Below, one piece after another: positions 40,384 through 52,452 of a DNA stretch of 64,000 nucleotides. Numbering within the stretch: the first letter of the stretch is position 1; the number at the start of each line of letters is the position of its first letter. This stretch comes from Escherichia coli 042 (GTDB taxonomy: Bacteria > Pseudomonadota > Gammaproteobacteria > Enterobacterales > Enterobacteriaceae). Both the position numbers and the translations under genes were made by a program. The DNA is taken from NCBI RefSeq assembly GCF_000027125.1, contig NC_017626.1; one strand, given 5' to 3'. Below the pieces are notes generated by a model. That model ran no database searches. It was not told the origin of the DNA and saw only the letters and a list, made by a program, of their open reading frames with translations.

Positions 40384-40530
40384 ATGGCAAAGCCGATCAT
40401 CACGCTCAATGGCCTAAAAATCGTCATTATGTTGGGAATGCTGGTCATTATTCTCTGCGGTATCCGTTTTGCCGCCGAGATCATCGTGCCGTTTATTCTC
40501 GCATTATTTATTGCTGTTATATATAACTAA
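40384..40530 (+). pseudogene. tqsA: tqsA 5' fragment (first 46 native codons, then island-derived I-Y-N-stop)
   Basis: [46 protein letters not shown] then frame leaves native sequence at 40521. Confidence 0.85.
40512..40520. repeat. attL core direct repeat TGCTGTTAT
   Basis: Identical 9-mer at 51546-51554; joining the flanks restores ...[18 protein letters not shown]... of TqsA. Confidence 0.65.
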
Positions 40531-40593: not shown

Positions 40594-40617
40594 ATGACTA
40601 CACCAGTGACTACACCG
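40594..40617. repeat. Arm-type tandem repeat ATGACTACACC-AGTGACTACACCG near attL
   Basis: Same 23-24 nt tandem motif present at 51395-51418 near attR in same orientation. Confidence 0.55.
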
Positions 40618-44781: not shown

Positions 44782-45054
44782 TTAGCTGTCCTGGTAATTG
44801 CGCCATATTTCATCACCAGCACCATCTATACCCATTTCGGCATAAGTGCGATCGACTGCCTTTTTCAGGTCTCCGAAATTATCCGGCGGCTCCGGTGCCC
44901 TCTGTGCCTTCCTTGAACATTCCAGCCGTCGCATCGTGATGTGATGCCGTTCCTTGTCTGTCTCCACCAGCTGCATGACTTCACCCCATCGCGCCGCCGC
45001 CCTCCGGTAAAAGCCTTTCGCCTCCAGTTCCTCCGCTATGCGGTCATGTACCAT
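44782..45054 (-). CDS. PerC/Pch-family transcriptional regulator (90 aa)
   Basis: AEELEAKGFYRRAAARWGEVM resembles recalled Pch/PerC signature (…LEAQGLWRRAAARW…); GAGGGGG SD before ATG. Confidence 0.55.
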   Translation of the reverse strand: MVHDRIAEELEAKGFYRRAAARWGEVMQLVETDKERHHITMRRLECSRKAQRAPEPPDNFGDLKKAVDRTYAEMGIDGAGDEIWRNYQDS

Positions 45055-45734: not shown

Positions 45735-45926
45735 TCTCACTTTTTCGCCTCACTTTTTCAAGCGTCTCACTTCGTCGCAGTTGGGATTTTCGGTTTTTCT
45801 ATGTGTGTGTTTCATAAGTATTTTTTTACCCCTCACTTTTGAGGATGTATACAGGTCGAAAAGTGAGGGAGAGCGGGCTAATTTTGGCCCTCTTTCTATC
45901 CCCCTCGCTTTTGCTCCTCACTTTTA
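45735..45926. repeat. Iteron array (CTCACTTTT, at least 6 copies, both orientations) with AT-rich spacer: putative island replication origin
   Basis: Copies at 45735, 45748, 45766, 45832, 45858 (inverted), 45916; directly 3' of pri-rep gene. Confidence 0.55.
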
Positions 45927-47324
45927 TAGCGGCGCTACATCATCCCCATCGATACGAATAACCCCATCTTTTTCCAGCTTGTACAGCCAGCGCCGGAAGT
46001 TTTTCATTTCATACCCCAGCTTTTTCATGTCATCACGTAACAGCGGGATCGTGCACTTGTCGCCGTTCTGTGTGCGTGAACGGATGCACCCCCATAGCGC
46101 GGTATGGTTTTCCGTCTTGTTCCCTGCCTCCTCGATGCGCTCCAGTTCAACAGGAGGGCGCGGATCATCCACCACCACCAGCGACGTGATTAATTCACCG
46201 TCAGCGTCGGTAAAAAGCTCCACCACGCGTAAGTCATATGCGGCTTCTTTGAGTTCCTCCGCGTCCTTCATTTTGGTGCATGAGATAACCAGCGCTTCGC
46301 TTCCTGCGTCCTCCCTGCGTATCCGGTATTCAGCATCCAGCGAAGCACGAAATGCACTGGAACCGCGCGCGCCTTTCGTCTCATCCTTGCCGGAATGGTG
46401 AACCACCAGCACCGTGGCCCCTGTGCGTCGTTTCAGTTCGTCACAACCACGGATAAACGCCCCCATATCACGGGAATCATTTTCATCATTCCCACCAAAG
46501 CAACGCGCCAGCGTATCCAGAATAATCATGCGTACAGGTTTACCCGTTTCCCGCTCCACCTGACGGGCAGCGATAACCATTTCATCAACATCAAGCGGGG
46601 CAGCCGGAAAGATGGGGCGGTTTACCAGATACAGATTTTTCACCTGCTCATCGTGCACAACCTCCCAGGCTTTTACACGACGCGGAACACCTATACCGCC
46701 TTCACCAACCACATAGAGAACCGCACCATGTGCAACCCTGCGGCCTCCCCACTGGCGACCAGTGGCAACATGGCACGCCCACGATCCAGCAAGGAATGAT
46801 TTATAGGACCCGCTAGCCCCGTATATGCTGCATAGCGATACCGCCGGAATAATCCCCTTAACCACGTAATCCAGTTGCGTGTCGTATCCGGTAGATCCAA
46901 CGCTCATCGGTAGCGTGGTTTTTCGCTGGTGTTTTTTTTCTTCCGCCGGCTCTTTCCCGCGCACCCGTTCCAGGTATTCGCGCCAGTTCTCCCGCATATG
47001 GCTGTGCATCCCTTCGGGGTAATAATTCGCATCAGTTACACCCGCCGCCGCCAGCTTGTGCGCAATGGCATTAATATTTGATGGCCTGATGTGGCCTGCC
47101 TTGTACAGCCGGACACAATAGCGCCCCTCGTCGATGATTCTCAGGTCTGCCAGTTCATCCAGTTGATCATCAGCCAGCACAACGGGAGGCACATTATCGC
47201 CAGCCAGTCGCCCGTCCTGTTCCTGCCACTGTTTCGCATGTGCCCAGGCATCACTACCCGCAAAAATAATGACTTCGGTCATCTTGTCGTAAGGCTGTTT
47301 TTTTAAGTTCGGTGCGCTTTTCAT
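45924..47324 (-). CDS. Primase/replicase-type AAA ATPase (RepA/AAA_25-like, 466 aa)
   Basis: Walker A GASGSYKS, Walker B MIILDTLARCFGG, VVHHSGKDETKGARGSSAF sensor region. Confidence 0.8.
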   Translation of the reverse strand: MKSAPNLKKQPYDKMTEVIIFAGSDAWAHAKQWQEQDGRLAGDNVPPVVLADDQLDELADLRIIDEGRYCVRLYKAGHIRPSNINAIAHKLAAAGVTDANYYPEGMHSHMRENWREYLERVRGKEPAEEKKHQRKTTLPMSVGSTGYDTQLDYVVKGIIPAVSLCSIYGASGSYKSFLAGSWACHVATGRQWGGRRVAHGAVLYVVGEGGIGVPRRVKAWEVVHDEQVKNLYLVNRPIFPAAPLDVDEMVIAARQVERETGKPVRMIILDTLARCFGGNDENDSRDMGAFIRGCDELKRRTGATVLVVHHSGKDETKGARGSSAFRASLDAEYRIRREDAGSEALVISCTKMKDAEELKEAAYDLRVVELFTDADGELITSLVVVDDPRPPVELERIEEAGNKTENHTALWGCIRSRTQNGDKCTIPLLRDDMKKLGYEMKNFRRWLYKLEKDGVIRIDGDDVAPL

Positions 47325-47620
47325 TTCTTGCCCCTGAATCCGTTAACCATGGTTTTCAGCTTCTGGATGTTTGCCCGTGCCCTGGCGTTGCTGGTGGGCA
47401 CGTTATGCGGCGCGGTCTGTACCAGAGAAAAATCACGCCGGAACTGATAAACAGGCATCACGCAATCATATTCGTAACCTTCACGGCGGTAGGTTACGCG
47501 CCGTTCTTCCACGTCCTTAATCATTACCGTGCCGCCGTACTGGTCGCGGTAAATATCACCGCGCGTAAATTTAGGGTGAGTGTTGCCACTGGCAGTTAAG
47601 CCAGAATATTTAAGTTTCAT
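47321..47620 (-). CDS. Hypothetical island protein (99 aa)
   Basis: ORF in tight operon; stop overlaps pri-rep start. Confidence 0.45.
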   Translation of the reverse strand: MKLKYSGLTASGNTHPKFTRGDIYRDQYGGTVMIKDVEERRVTYRREGYEYDCVMPVYQFRRDFSLVQTAPHNVPTSNARARANIQKLKTMVNGFRGKK

Positions 47621-47625
47621 TATTT

Positions 47626-47859
47626 TTATTCTCCGGTGTGCTGTTCTTTATATCTGTCGTGCAATAGATCTATTTCTTGCAGTTCCATTATTACAGGCTC
47701 AAGAAGCGTTATTAATGCTGTGGCAATTCTTGATTTTTGTTTGTCGCGTTCATTGTCGCCAAGTGTTTCAAGCCATATGCGCAATATTTCCATCATGTTT
47801 TCACTGTGAGAAAGTGCAAGAAATGCGCGGTCTATTGTTTGGTGGTAAATATCACGCAT
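47626..47859 (-). CDS. Hypothetical island protein (77 aa)
   Basis: ORF in operon. Confidence 0.4.
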   Translation of the reverse strand: MRDIYHQTIDRAFLALSHSENMMEILRIWLETLGDNERDKQKSRIATALITLLEPVIMELQEIDLLHDRYKEQHTGE

Positions 47860-48319
47860 GGCTTACATCCTCAGGAAATTTTCTTCTATAACGCGCCTCT
47901 GCCACATATTCCGCATAATCGGCGGCGATATTCAGTACATCAAGCCCCGTTGATTTATATTCTCTCGTGGAAAGTAAGAAAAAAGCCGCTCTAATAAGTT
48001 CTGGCATTGACGAAAGCGCATCAGCCGCATCATCAGGAACGCCGGAAAATTCCTGTTTCAGGGAATTAAAACGATCATCACGCATAACCCCCCCCCCATT
48101 TTCACAATCAGCAATCAGGATAGCTTTGGCCTCATTCAGCGCCGTATCAGCACTAAATTGCATGACAGCCAGTGAGTGAGGAACGAAAGCACCGGCATAT
48201 TCTGTTTCGCTGGTGGCGTGCTTATGTGCCCTGTCCGCGATAACAGAAATATCAATCAGCGCGTGCATCAGCGTTTTGATGGCTTCGGCGGCTGCGTCCG
48301 GTGTGGTTTTATTGTGCAT
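47852..48319 (-). CDS. Hypothetical island protein (155 aa)
   Basis: ORF in operon. Confidence 0.45.
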   Translation of the reverse strand: MHNKTTPDAAAEAIKTLMHALIDISVIADRAHKHATSETEYAGAFVPHSLAVMQFSADTALNEAKAILIADCENGGGVMRDDRFNSLKQEFSGVPDDAADALSSMPELIRAAFFLLSTREYKSTGLDVLNIAADYAEYVAEARYRRKFPEDVSHA

Positions 48320-48521
48320 AAAGCATCCCCTGAATATTCGTGTTAATCATTCCGGCACGTTTTGTGATTTCCTGTAATGATTCCCTTGTGGCGACAATTG
48401 CTTCATCTGGTAAGTGGTAATTACACACCACGCGACCTTTATCCACATTGACCAGTAGCTGCCCTGTGAATTTCTCACGAAACTGAATGCGGTTAAGGTC
48501 AGTAAGTGACAGATTAATCAT
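48309..48521 (-). CDS. Hypothetical island protein (70 aa)
   Basis: AGGAGG immediately upstream of ATG at 48521. Confidence 0.45.
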   Translation of the reverse strand: MINLSLTDLNRIQFREKFTGQLLVNVDKGRVVCNYHLPDEAIVATRESLQEITKRAGMINTNIQGMLYAQ

Positions 48522-48711
48522 GGCGCACCTCCTGACGAATACGGGCGGCAAATACAGCAACACAACCGGACGGGCAACGGTTACGCGCTTCGCGTTCCGT
48601 CCAGGCGGTTACGTGGATGATTTGAGATTCTCCGGCACTCAGTGCCAGAAAACGCCACACAAAGGCCGTTTGTGTGTGTACAAGGTGTGGTATATGATTT
48701 ACAGCAACCAT
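48514..48711 (-). CDS. Hypothetical island protein (65 aa), first gene of leftward operon
   Basis: AGGAG SD upstream of ATG at 48711. Confidence 0.4.
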   Translation of the reverse strand: MVAVNHIPHLVHTQTAFVWRFLALSAGESQIIHVTAWTEREARNRCPSGCVAVFAARIRQEVRHD

Positions 48712-48804
48712 AACGGCTCCTAGTTTACGTTGTTGGTTAGAAGCCCTGCGAGTGGTAACGACACTTGCGGGGCTTTGTCTTTTCATCGATTACCTTGATA
48801 AAGG

Positions 48805-48884
48805 TGTCAGCCACTATATTAGTAACGGGTGTCAGCCACGTCAATAGTGTTTTTCCGTTTTCTTGTGTGTATACTGTCAGCCAC
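48805..48884. promoter_or_regulatory. Three direct repeats TGTCAGCCAC in divergent promoter region, with TATACT -10-like element
   Basis: Repeats at 48805-48814, 48830-48839, 48875-48884. Confidence 0.5.
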
Positions 48885-48905
48885 CTAATAACGAGGAAAT
48901 CAGAT

Positions 48906-49085
48906 ATGGCAACAAAAGCAGTTAATGCAAAATCCAAAAAGCTTGAGGCTCGAGTACCACACGCAATAGCTGATGCTGTAGAAAATTTAAAGGAAGATGG
49001 CGAAAGTACAGGGCAATTTATCGTTTCGGCACTTGAAGGCGAGATCAAACGCCGCCAGCGCCGCAAGGCCAAAGAATCAGAATAA
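48906..49085 (+). CDS. Ribbon-helix-helix (CopG/Arc-like) putative repressor (59 aa)
   Basis: KKLEARVPHAIADAVENLKEDGESTGQFIVSALEGEIKR fits beta-strand/helix/helix RHH pattern; divergent from main operon. Confidence 0.5.
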   Translation: MATKAVNAKSKKLEARVPHAIADAVENLKEDGESTGQFIVSALEGEIKRRQRRKAKESE

Positions 49086-49127
49086 TCACTATCAGCGCCG
49101 TGGTGTGAGGTATTACGGCGCATTGCT

Positions 49128-49316
49128 ATGCAGGACAACACAATGACCGATAAAGAATTGACCAAAACATTATCACCGGCACGGAAAAGACGGCGCAGAA
49201 AGATAGAGCATGAATCAGAAAGATTCGCACCATGTGCTTTTGCCCTTGAGCAATTCCTTAAAGAGTACAGGGAAAAGCGCTCATTGCAGGTATGGCAACG
49301 AACTGAACCAGACTGA
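49128..49316 (+). CDS. Hypothetical small basic protein (62 aa or shorter from MTDKEL)
   Basis: ORF followed by hairpin plus T7 at ~49410-49440. Confidence 0.3.
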   Translation: MQDNTMTDKELTKTLSPARKRRRRKIEHESERFAPCAFALEQFLKEYREKRSLQVWQRTEPD

Positions 49317-49585
49317 TTGCATTGCCCACCAGCCTGATAGCGGCTATCATCCCCGTGCTTATGTTTGGGATCACACACACAAACGGCGCAGCGGGTTATC
49401 TGTTCAGAAAGGCGGCTCCATTTCGGGGCCGCTTTTTTTATACCTGAAAAACCCCAATTTTGTTGTTTTTCAGTTTCACCAGGGCGAACGAATCCCCGCC
49501 CACGTTCTGGCGTATATTCAATCTTCATGGTTATAGCTCTGTGTTCAGATGATTGATGTGTGGCGGCTGCGTGCCGCCAGCGTGA

Positions 49586-49774
49586 TTAATGAACTGCCTT
49601 GCAGCTATCCTTCCAGGCCAGAACCTCGGATAAAGACCAGCCAACGGAACGACCGCCAAGTTTACGACGTGATGGGAATTGTCCGGCCTTTTCCAGGCGG
49701 TAGCGACACGTACGGCTAAGGCCGGTTAGTTTTTCGCATTCTTTTTCACGTATAAACCGATCAGTGCTTAACAC
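49586..49774 (-). CDS. alpA: AlpA-family excision/transcription regulator
   Basis: 62 aa MLSTDRFIREKECEKLTGLSRTCRYRLEKAGQFPSRRKLGGRSVGWSLSEVLAW. Confidence 0.8.
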   Translation of the reverse strand: MLSTDRFIREKECEKLTGLSRTCRYRLEKAGQFPSRRKLGGRSVGWSLSEVLAWKDSCKAVH

Positions 49775-50140: not shown

Positions 50141-51370
50141 TTATTTTCTTCTGGCTACTGGTAGCGTGGTTACGTTTTCATGTGTTCCCGCCAGTATCCC
50201 TAACCGCTCCGTCCACATATCCAGCGCATTGCGTTTAGCATCCAGATAACGGGAATGATTATAAACTCGCTGCATTCCTGGCATCTGGTGGCCTGTAAGC
50301 TGCTCCACGACATGCGGATCAACGCCTAAATCGTTCAGCATGGTTGTAAAGGTGCGCCGGATGTCATGCAGTGACCAGTGAGGATGATTAAGCCTCCTGT
50401 GCGCTAATCTTCCATACTGCGATACGCTGGCCTCCTGTTTCACTTCCCCCAGCAATAAGCCCGTGTGCCTGTTCTGCTCCACCAGCTGCGTGACGAACGG
50501 CAGGATCGCTTCCGGTATGGGCCGGAATATTGCGACCTTCGTTTTGCTGTGCTCCTTCGGAACGGTCCATAGCATTTCCGTAAAATCCCACTCCCCGATC
50601 TCCGATAACCTCAGTTCTACCGTTCTGGCTCCGAAGACAATCAGGAGGCGGATTAACGCGACGTAGTAAGGGGAGAATATTTTTTTGTCCAGTGCCTGCA
50701 ATAATTCGCCAAGTTCTTTGTTACTTAAGACACGTTCGCTTATATCCGGTTTTTTCCCAACGTCCGCCACGTTCAGATCGTCCAGAACGTTGCTGATTGC
50801 ATAGCGCCGCCTACGGCAGAACTTAAGCGCCTGTTTGCACGCCTGTAGCACGAATCCGGCAGTAACAGGCGTTCGCTTTGCCACCTGGTCAAAACAGGCC
50901 AGCCAGTGCCGTAGCTCGCATTTATCCAGCGGCATAGCACCAATCTGCTGTATTACGTGATTATTAAGTCGCCTTTTCAGGGCGATATAATCCACGCGGT
51001 TTTCCTTTACGTAATACTCAAGCCAGTAGGTGAGCGCATCGCCAACCGTTACCGGCTTTAACGCTTCCTGTACGGTGTAATTAAGCTCATGACGTGGATT
51101 TTTCCCCTCTGCCAGCCATGCGCGACACTGGGCGGCTTTTTCCCTGGCTGATTTCAGGCTCAGATCAGGATAACTTCCCAGCTTAATGCGTTCGGGTCGT
51201 GTCTCCCTTCCCGTTCCGGCCCTGTATGTGAAATACCAGGTCAATTTCCCTGATGTTAAATATTTCACGCTCAGGTTTCCGCCATCACTATAAAACGTGT
51301 TTTTCTCCGCTGGCTTACCATGAAGTTTCCTTAGCAAGGTATCGCTCAGTTTGTTCATTGCTCTGCTCAC
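50141..51370 (-). CDS. int: P4-type tyrosine integrase (start GTG 51370 or ATG 51358)
   Basis: 409-aa ORF; catalytic region ...HDIRRTFTTMLNDLGVDPHVVEQLTGHQMPGMQRVYNHSRY; adjacent to attR. Confidence 0.9.
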   Translation of the reverse strand: MSRAMNKLSDTLLRKLHGKPAEKNTFYSDGGNLSVKYLTSGKLTWYFTYRAGTGRETRPERIKLGSYPDLSLKSAREKAAQCRAWLAEGKNPRHELNYTVQEALKPVTVGDALTYWLEYYVKENRVDYIALKRRLNNHVIQQIGAMPLDKCELRHWLACFDQVAKRTPVTAGFVLQACKQALKFCRRRRYAISNVLDDLNVADVGKKPDISERVLSNKELGELLQALDKKIFSPYYVALIRLLIVFGARTVELRLSEIGEWDFTEMLWTVPKEHSKTKVAIFRPIPEAILPFVTQLVEQNRHTGLLLGEVKQEASVSQYGRLAHRRLNHPHWSLHDIRRTFTTMLNDLGVDPHVVEQLTGHQMPGMQRVYNHSRYLDAKRNALDMWTERLGILAGTHENVTTLPVARRK

Positions 51371-51554: not shown

Positions 51555-51567
51555 TCTTAACCCGCTG

Positions 51568-52452
51568 GTGCAACACATGGTCCGCTGGCGAGTGCCGCGT
51601 GTACTGGCGGTGTCGATTTTGATGACCATCATCGTGATGGCGATGGTGTTGCTGTTAGCTTATCTGGGTTCCGCGCTCAACGAGTTGACGCGGACGTTAC
51701 CGCAATATCGCAACTCTATTATGACGCCGCTGCAAGCGATTGAACCGTTGTTGCAACGCGTAGGGATTGATGTCTCAGTTGACCAACTGGCGCATTACAT
51801 TGATCCGAACGCGGCGATGACGTTGCTCACCAACTTATTGACGCAGTTATCTAATGCCATGTCATCAATATTTTTATTGCTGCTGACGGTGCTGTTTATG
51901 CTGCTCGAAGTGCCACAATTGCCCGGAAAATTTCAGCAAATGATGGCGCGTCCGGTTGAAGGGATGGCGGCGATTCAGCGTGCGATTGACAGTGTTTCTC
52001 ATTATCTGGTGCTGAAAACAGCCATCAGCATCATCACCGGCCTGGTCGCCTGGGCGATGCTCGCCGCACTCGATGTTCGCTTCGCTTTTGTCTGGGGATT
52101 GCTGGCCTTTGCGCTTAATTACATCCCTAATATTGGTTCAGTTCTCGCAGCAATTCCCCCTATCGCTCAGGTACTGGTGTTTAATGGCTTCTACGAAGCG
52201 TTGTTGGTGCTGGCGGGATATCTGCTGATTAATCTGGTCTTCGGCAATATTCTGGAGCCGCGCATCATGGGACGTGGGCTGGGGCTTTCGACATTGGTGG
52301 TATTTTTGTCGTTGATTTTTTGGGGATGGTTGTTAGGACCGGTGGGTATGCTGCTTTCCGTGCCGTTGACAATTATTGTCAAAATTGCGCTTGAACAAAC
52401 AGCGGGAGGTCAAAGCATCGCCGTTCTGTTAAGCGATCTCAATAAAGAGTGA
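51568..52452 (+). pseudogene. tqsA: tqsA 3' fragment (lacks first ~55 codons; internal GTG/ATG present)
   Basis: [26 protein letters not shown]... continues TqsA frame to native stop. Confidence 0.85.

Follow-up and report, generated by a model that had tools for sequence, protein, structure and literature searches.

The window analysed here, a stretch of 64,000 nucleotides (nt) from Escherichia coli 042, carries on its minus strand, at 47321-48711, a block of five open reading frames (ORFs) of 65, 70, 155, 77, and 99 amino acids (aa) that leads directly into a RepA-type replicase gene, within an island of approximately 11 kb. The comparison of related loci presented herein shows a conserved frame, made up of an Icd-like protein at the head of the operon and, before the replicase, an acidic protein of 75-80 aa and the basic protein RgdR, with middle genes that are interchangeable modules. 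Gene 1 (48514-48711), the first ORF of the operon, encodes the Icd-like protein of 65 aa from the ATG at 48711, with AGGAG located 5 nt before this codon. Gene 2 (48309-48521, 70 aa) is preceded by GGAGG and overlaps gene 1 by 8 nt, ATGATTAA, gene 3 (47852-48319, 155 aa) is preceded by AGGGGA and overlaps gene 2 by 11 nt, and gene 4 (47626-47859, 77 aa) is preceded by GAGGA and overlaps gene 3 by 8 nt, ATGCGTGA. Gene 5 (47321-47620, 99 aa), which encodes RgdR, has GGAGAA before its start, follows gene 4 after a gap of 5 nt, and ends in a 4-nt ATGA overlap with the start of repA (45924-47324, also on the minus strand). The latter gene, with AGGGG before its start, encodes a RepA-family helicase of 466 aa ('helicase RepA family protein' in the Prokaryotic Genome Annotation Pipeline, PGAP) that matches phrog_2850 together with primase/helicase families. 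The original prediction, made from the DNA letters, described five tightly packed genes, several with strong Shine-Dalgarno (SD) sites and overlapping stops and starts, between a regulatory switch and the replicase, and that description holds: the ORFs are exact, there are five SD motifs, and the overlaps are of 8, 11, and 8 nt. From this packing we infer that the five genes are co-transcribed.

The five ORFs are real genes and not chance ORFs, because all five match PHROG families (E values of 1e-23 to 5e-91), all are annotated in RefSeq in hundreds of E. coli genomes, the lengths of the homologous ORFs are kept although the alleles are only 26-65% identical, and the variable sites in RgdR show an excess at the third codon position (16, 17, and 43 at positions one, two, and three, respectively). 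The block or part of it is present in 1461 of 5426 complete E. coli genomes, of which 305 carry at least 80% of it, and a DNA search of a phage collection found nothing. We compared approximately 90 related loci, 80 of them from IMG/VR (by means of an RgdR alignment), one from E. albertii, several from RefSeq, and ten identified via a neighbouring protein, using local ORF calling, BLAST, and jackhmmer. The E. albertii locus was the single one returned when genome contigs were searched with the RgdR alignment as a profile.

At the 5' end of the related blocks there is always at least one Icd-like gene, the alleles of which are 43-100% identical. The 3' end begins with a gene 4 family protein, which is 75-80 aa long, acidic in all cases, and down to 26% identical between alleles, and it continues, after the conserved 5-nt gap, with RgdR, the stop codon of which overlaps the start of the replicase (ATGA) in all of the loci examined. 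The middle consists of a changing set made up of gene 2 (in its 70- or 121-aa form), the halves of gene 3, and genes of 46, 47, 61, 63, and 72 aa, and the minimal blocks contain only the Icd-like gene, the gene 4 family member, and RgdR (for example, locus L068). The ends of the block are kept across at least four replicase types, as RgdR is followed by RepA (465-471 aa), D5_N/DUF5906 (582-584 aa), DUF927, or forms of 601-714 aa. However, the first ~100 residues of the replicase (47020-47324 in the window) are common to the otherwise unrelated RepA, DUF5906, and 711-aa types (L003 and L084), and residues 1-102 of the RepA in the window are 61% identical to a DUF5906 replicase. This shared N-terminus implies that gene 4, RgdR, and the N-terminal domain of the replicase are inherited together. 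By this comparison of sequences, genes 1, 4, and 5 are the core of the block and genes 2 and 3 are optional, interchangeable modules.

Gene 1 matches the Icd-like model NF033153 with 64.8 bits (the cutoff is 25) and is 37% identical to the Icd protein of phage P1 (E value of 2e-7), which itself scores 52.6 bits against the same model. NF033153 is also matched by the C-terminus of the P4 'cI ORF' (137 aa, E value of 8e-21) and by a 121-aa protein of related islands. Gene 1 is, by these matches, a member of the Icd family, and inhibition of cell division is predicted for it from the family. Against phages, a tblastn search with gene 1 gave one match, which is in an induced element of 16.5 kb. 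The conserved C-terminus of the protein (ARIRQ-) encodes the SD site of whichever gene comes next. The corresponding coding motif, TTCGTCAGG(A/G)GG, recurs at gene junctions, as for a module-exchange recombination boundary. Upstream of the gene 4 homologue, five loci (L013, L052, L057, L058, and L068) have several Icd-like genes in tandem, two or three in number (65 aa plus ~154 aa). The consensus scan also reported a weak terminator-like hairpin, with GCGTTTTCTG following it, inside gene 1, at 48676-48656 on the minus strand, approximately 35 nt past the start codon; it overlaps the codons of the conserved FVWRF motif and may be a mere by-product of coding.

Gene 5 contains DUF4222 (PF13973, E value of 1e-23, residues 16-68) with an RGD motif at residues 20-22 (TRGDIY, residues 19-24), an isoelectric point (pI) of 10.05, and a charge of +9.7. 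By sequence, it is an orthologue of RgdR (ECs1581), which was mapped to O-island 51 (OI-51) of O157:H7 in 2012 (Flockhart et al., PMC3378721). In that study, RgdR switched on the LEE1 promoter and type III secretion while repressing motility, and its DNA binding was non-specific (PMC3378721). The LEE1 and motility activities are published for both ECs1581 and C1493, and they depend on residue 20 of the RGD motif, among others (PMC3378721). When supplied in trans, RgdR alters LEE1, motility, and Congo-red binding even in backgrounds from which the island has been deleted (PMC3378721), and it is reported in all analysed E. coli phage-inducible chromosomal islands, or PICIs (Fillol-Salom et al., PMC6092414). 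Structure prediction had been proposed as a check on the five proteins. The AlphaFold2 (AF2) model of RgdR, built on an alignment of 42 sequences, has a confident barrel core, with a predicted local distance difference test (pLDDT) score above 90, in which five strands and a short helix form a small barrel (residues 23-68) that is followed by a C-terminal helix (residues 79-96). The barrel models as SH3/Tudor/KOW-like, a common fold, with scores that are modest, and the model fits a small adaptor that would bind nucleic acid or polymerase, as well as the pleiotropic phenotypes. A fold search against viral models returned only uncharacterized or DUF1653 proteins, and a sequence search of the PDB with RgdR gave matches at chance level only. 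The original prediction recognized no domain in any of the five genes; this does not stand for gene 1 (NF033153) or gene 5 (DUF4222/RgdR), but it does for genes 2, 3, and 4, which have no match in Pfam, NCBIfam, or PADLOC and belong to PHROG families that are all of 'unknown function'.

Gene 4 encodes an acidic, helical protein with a charge of -6 (phrog_2196, E value of 1e-42), and its family is always located directly upstream of RgdR. Searches for homologues of genes 3 and 4 gave almost only near-identical E. coli proteins. A 73-aa protein from a distant island matches phrog_2196 at 1e-28 and is linked by jackhmmer to all of the gene 4 alleles. The protein is acidic in each of the three alleles tested (charges of -6 to -7) and RgdR is basic, which suggests that the two are a pair, as partners or as antagonists.

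The middle genes are of a different nature. Gene 2 (phrog_340, E value of 1e-23) is an optional, mosaic module that occurs as 70- or 121-aa alleles and is missing from most of the related loci. Gene 3 encodes an acidic, all-helical protein that matches phrog_2512 over its full length and is a fusion of an N and a C module, since its halves match the separate families phrog_5146 and phrog_24341. Elsewhere the N module is a protein of ~73-86 aa and the C module one of 77 aa starting with MRDDRF, and in many relatives the two are separate genes, sometimes with a homologue of gene 2 between them; in strain JB2, for example, RefSeq annotates two ORFs for gene 3. By 'Rosetta stone' logic, the N and C modules probably act together. 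The AF2 model of gene 3 is too poor to interpret (pLDDT of 55.6, all-helical, with a disordered junction), and a sequence search of the PDB gave matches at chance level only.

The junction between the two modules of gene 3 contains a poly-G tract, G10 on the coding strand in the window (48088-48097, minus strand), with the start codon of the C module itself (ATG, 48085-48083) 2 nt downstream of it. Among 49 copies that have this junction, including that in the window, the tract is G7 in 14, G8 in 18, G9 in 13, G10 in 4 (one of them the window), and G11 in 1, and a sample spread over the complete E. coli genomes gave G7 in 21, G8 in 1, and G9 in 3. With G7 or G10 gene 3 is fused, with G8 there are two coupled genes that overlap at ATGCGTGA, and with G9 the N protein is longer; RefSeq accordingly calls one ORF or two depending on the length of the tract. 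Because the C module has its own ATG, both modules remain translatable at every length, and the variation thus toggles gene 3 between fused and split forms rather than between on and off. The tract is constant within each of two serotypes, as all sampled O157:H7 copies have G7 and all sampled O55:H7 copies have G8, so the differences are inherited and are not sequencing noise, and switching is not rapid. A second fusion or split of this kind, at an A-rich stretch, is a 117-aa ORF in L033 and L060 that corresponds to genes of 47 and 73 aa in L040, and it joins the 47-aa gene (related to a 63-aa gene of the type found in ECOR61, discussed below) to the N module of gene 3.

The element that contains the block lies between the two halves of tqsA, with the N-terminus of that gene at 40390-40530 and the remainder resuming at 51555-52452. 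The split gene, tqsA, is that of the autoinducer-2 exporter, and copies of a 23-nt direct repeat, TGACTACACCAGTGACTACACCG, are found at 40595 and 51396, immediately within the two ends of the island. In the direction of transcription the order is integrase, AlpA-like regulator, a switch region of ~870 bp, the five genes, RepA, an ORF of 93 aa, a single-stranded DNA-binding protein (SSB), a PerC-family gene, and then the packaging and capsid genes. The final genes of the island encode the major capsid protein, a decoration protein, and the small terminase (terS), which are the sole morphogenesis genes seen. The tyrosine integrase gene (50141-51370, minus strand) is at the end of the island and the AlpA-like gene (49586-49774, minus strand, 62 aa) is next to it; the latter is 45% identical to Vis of P4 and 54% identical to the AlpA of a related island, and PF05930 is recorded for the equivalent genes in related loci. 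The element is a classical Gram-negative PICI of the EcCICFT073/O-island-51 lineage, with an integrase at one end and an alpA-type regulator next to it, both on the minus strand, its own replicase downstream, and a size within ~10-15 kb, and tail or lysis genes were not seen in it. In Gram-negative PICIs, as worked out for EcCICFT073, AlpA is induced by a helper phage and in turn switches on the genes that lie downstream, although high-frequency transfer induced by a helper via AlpA is known for EcCICFT073 only; OI-51 has been equated with PICIs of the EcCICFT073 type (PMC6092414). The PerC-family gene on the island is located at 44782-45054 on the minus strand. Relatives of PerC can activate or repress LEE1, and the island therefore holds two candidate regulators of the LEE, RgdR and PerC.

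The region between alpA and gene 1 contains several elements that may set the expression of the block. A candidate operon promoter, found by consensus scan, is sigma-70-like (TTGACG-17-TAATAT) and lies at 48844-48816 on the minus strand. Around it are three exact direct repeats of TGTCAGCCAC (48805-48884, with starts at 48805, 48830, and 48875 and spacings of 25 and 45 nt), positioned between divergent genes, and these repeats look like operator sites. The second of them (48830-48839) overlaps the -35 element of the candidate promoter and the first (48805-48814) is just downstream of the -10 element, and other regulatory alleles have different repeats at this position. The divergent gene (48906-49085, plus strand) encodes a 59-aa protein of the YlcI/YnfO family (NF041551, E value of 1e-16; phrog_949), has a good ribosome-binding site, and is conserved on the opposite strand in related loci with 34-100% identity; it is without RefSeq annotation in the closest relative. 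This protein is a candidate regulator of the switch. A second small plus-strand ORF (49128-49316, phrog_21027) follows it. A long minus-strand ORF at 48737-49528, annotated by PGAP in a relative as a truncated Icd-like pseudogene, was set aside because its unusual composition, together with differences in its length from locus to locus, makes it most likely a shadow of the plus-strand genes. On the coding strand, the consensus scan also gave a weak terminator-like hairpin between alpA and the block, at 49303-49279.

The leader of gene 1 contains a GC-rich stem-loop of 15 pairs at 48740-48776 (within 48740-48785), approximately 30 nt upstream of the gene. The stem is kept in 78 of 79 related loci, which contain 25 distinct stem sequences with both arms differing together, and the stability of the leader as a whole is not unusual (z of -0.58). 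On the plus (antisense) strand the stem is followed by a T-rich tail, as in an intrinsic terminator, so that a short antisense RNA spanning the ribosome-binding site of gene 1 is conceivable. The consensus scan yielded no promoter for an RNA of this kind, and an Rfam scan of the whole island found no C4- or CI-type RNA at E values up to 1.

Based on these data we put forward a hypothetical role for the block, towards which we lean with some reserve, as the early-operon leader of a PICI of the EcCICFT073/O-island-51 lineage, which under the control of AlpA would make modulators directed at the host or the helper phage. We propose that a helper phage would switch on AlpA and that AlpA would activate transcription of the operon, an action of AlpA that is known in EcCICFT073, whereupon ribosomes would pass from one coupled small ORF to the next and on into the replicase. 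The targets of the small proteins would be host or helper factors, and the proteins would not be enzymes. Specifically, the Icd-like protein would arrest division or growth, and RgdR, bound to nucleic acid or to the transcription machinery, would reprogram transcription, which would explain the effects of its leaky expression on LEE1, motility, and Congo-red binding. The acidic gene 4 protein would likely be a partner or antagonist of RgdR, and genes 2 and 3, as variable members of a shuffled pool, may set specificity. By analogy, the block may also be an abortive-infection-like device, because a unit of an apparent sister island, that of ECOR61, gives growth arrest on expression of an accessory protein of T7-group phages. 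In that system, expression of the T7-group accessory gene orf24 stops the growth of ECOR61, and suppressor transposons hit three genes in a row, 366, 186, and 192 nt long and overlapping by 8 and 1 nt (Silas et al., bioRxiv 10.1101/2023.04.06.535777). Rebuilding the system needed six linked genes, including the primase, and gave a weaker effect, removal of the Icd-like gene abolished the growth arrest, and the whole was published as 'prophage-encoded superinfection exclusion' (10.1101/2023.04.06.535777).

Several points weigh against this proposal. Genes 2, 3, and 4 are without an informative homologue in Pfam, NCBIfam, and PADLOC, as is gene 3 among PDB sequences, the structural model of gene 3 is unreliable, and the host- or helper-directed roles are predicted from sequence. 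The 61- and 63-aa genes hit by transposons in ECOR61 are without a counterpart in the window, and the link to that system is made through gene sizes and annotation. The RgdR phenotypes come from expression in trans (PMC3378721) and have little bearing on the part that RgdR plays in the life cycle of the island. Finally, the tight coupling of the block to the replicase fits a role in replication equally well.

The last of these points leads to the main rival, in which gene 4 and RgdR have a replication-accessory role. RgdR, the 77-aa protein, or both would control initiation or copy number through the replicase, in the way that Cnr does with the P4 alpha replicase, and the other small genes would help. 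The ATGA overlap between the RgdR stop and the replicase start, present in every locus examined, would be expected of such an arrangement, as would the constancy of the unit made up of gene 4, RgdR, and the ~100 N-terminal residues of the replicase, behind which the remainder of the replicase is exchanged between loci (RepA, D5_N/DUF5906, DUF927, or a 711-aa form). In P4, alpha is immediately preceded by cnr, a copy-number regulator. However, no resemblance in sequence to Cnr, orf151, or epsilon was detected, and Cnr is of a different family. In addition, to act beyond the shared N-terminal ~100 residues RgdR would have to recognize several unrelated replicase bodies, and RgdR alone in trans changes LEE1, motility, and Congo-red binding, also where the island has been deleted. 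We therefore regard a replication-accessory role as unlikely, if worth keeping in view.

We give a little less credence still to the block being a dedicated anti-phage cargo module, acting by abortive infection or superinfection exclusion, in which the small proteins would detect the proteins of an incoming phage and the toxic effector would be the Icd-like protein. The superinfection-exclusion locus of ECOR61 has the same architecture and loses its growth arrest when the Icd-like gene is removed, the middle genes are mosaic, as expected of genes in an arms race, and satellites often carry defence genes (PMC10085698). On the other hand, the phenotype of the rebuilt ECOR61 system was weak and needed the primase as well, and the result is also compatible with toxicity of triggered island replication, as reported for EcCICFT073. 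The end genes of the block are core genes inside a replication operon and not a separate cassette, the 61- and 63-aa genes hit by transposons are absent from the window, and the PADLOC-DB 2.0 models gave zero families for all six proteins searched, at E values up to 0.1. The original prediction had proposed that the block is accessory or interference cargo. The functional part of that proposal gains from the action of RgdR on host genes and from the growth arrest of ECOR61 by the apparent sister block, but the block is not variable cargo, as its ends (the Icd-like gene on one side and the 77-aa family with RgdR on the other) are a conserved core, and it matches no known defence model.

A bolder form of the same idea, which we consider doubtful, is that the frame of the Icd-like protein, acidic protein, RgdR, and replicase is a general phage-sensing growth-arrest device of enterobacterial PICIs, with shuffled sensors, a poly-G fusion switch, and a silencing leader stem-loop. 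Each of the exchangeable middle genes would then sense a different phage protein, gene 3 would be switched by its poly-G tract between a fused and a two-subunit form, and the leader stem-loop, possibly as the terminator of a short antisense RNA that covers the ribosome-binding site of the Icd-like gene, would keep the unit silent by analogy with the C4 RNA of P1 and the CI RNA of P4. Finally, that these ORFs belong to a domesticated cryptic element, are partly decayed, and serve no function, the frameshifts being accumulating damage, is highly improbable: the poly-G length in gene 3 is out of frame in approximately two-thirds of related loci, there is a second fusion or split at another junction, and the island sits inside a disrupted host gene, but all of the ORFs keep good ribosome-binding sites and coupled starts, both modules of gene 3 are translatable whatever the tract length, the families persist across alleles that are 26-65% identical, and RgdR has both an excess of third-position substitutions and demonstrated activity.

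What the block does is relevant beyond this strain, since approximately one quarter of complete E. coli genomes, including O157:H7, carry at least part of it, and in O157:H7 RgdR affects virulence-gene expression and animal colonization. Knowing the role that RgdR and its fixed neighbours play in the island could explain why a global regulator is encoded on a satellite, and the same knowledge could connect the growth arrest of ECOR61 to the biology of PICIs. The block also provides a defined set of small proteins for the study of host-takeover or anti-phage activity.

Our reading of the block as an early-operon leader can be set against four known systems. The left operon of P4 has the same layout, with Vis/AlpA, an ORF with an Icd-like domain, epsilon, orf151, cnr, and the alpha replicase, and at the equivalent positions epsilon serves in helper derepression and cnr in copy-number control. 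BLASTP and jackhmmer gave no significant match between genes 2-5 and P4 epsilon, orf151, or Cnr, so the analogy with P4 is positional only. Homology of genes 2-5 to epsilon, orf151, or cnr was considered and dropped for want of sequence similarity, Cnr belonging to another family (DUF5375, phrog_5991), and a possible resemblance of gene 4 to Cnr in a motif, seen by eye only, was dropped as well. The two elements also differ in replicase and packaging strategy, and the island in the window is without an immunity RNA of the C4/CI type detectable by Rfam. The immI region of P1 is similar in that its first ORF is of the Icd family, has a stop codon that overlaps the next gene (ant), and is preceded by a structured leader. 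According to its annotation, P1 icd must be translated for the genes after it to be expressed, and icd is under the control of the C4 RNA. The downstream gene in P1 is an antirepressor, whereas in the window small proteins and a replicase follow and there is no match to the C4 RNA.

The ECOR61 system follows the same six-gene plan of an Icd-like gene, small genes, a DUF4222 gene, and a primase. Two of our loci, L091 and L093, match it in gene sizes and overlaps, with an Icd-like protein of 121 aa, proteins of 61, 63, and 73 aa, a DUF4222 protein of 99 aa, and a primase of 583 aa, and relative to genes 1, 4, and 5 of the window these size-matched loci are 53%, 26%, and 69% identical, respectively. 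They differ in that genes 2 and 3 of the window take the place of the 61- and 63-aa genes hit by transposons (phrog_3672 and phrog_1478), and the replicase is not of the same type. BLASTP and jackhmmer found no homologue of the 61- and 63-aa genes in the window, although such genes are present in some of the related loci. We infer that the ECOR61 system is a sister block, judged by gene lengths, overlaps, and annotation and not by the sequence of ECOR61.

The closest counterpart is the rgdR region of OI-51 (CP-933C) in O157:H7, which is 99.6% identical to the block at the nucleotide level over all 1391 bases. The two have the same gene order, from int and alpA through to rgdR and rep, and each has an RgdR of 99 aa with the RGD motif. 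The copy in the window is inserted in tqsA and not next to phoQ, gene 3 has G10 here and G7 in O157:H7, and the published list of residues suggests two differences between the RgdR of the window and ECs1581, at positions 10 and 45. The block in E. coli 042 is therefore not a new system; it is another copy of a known block that is already partly characterized.

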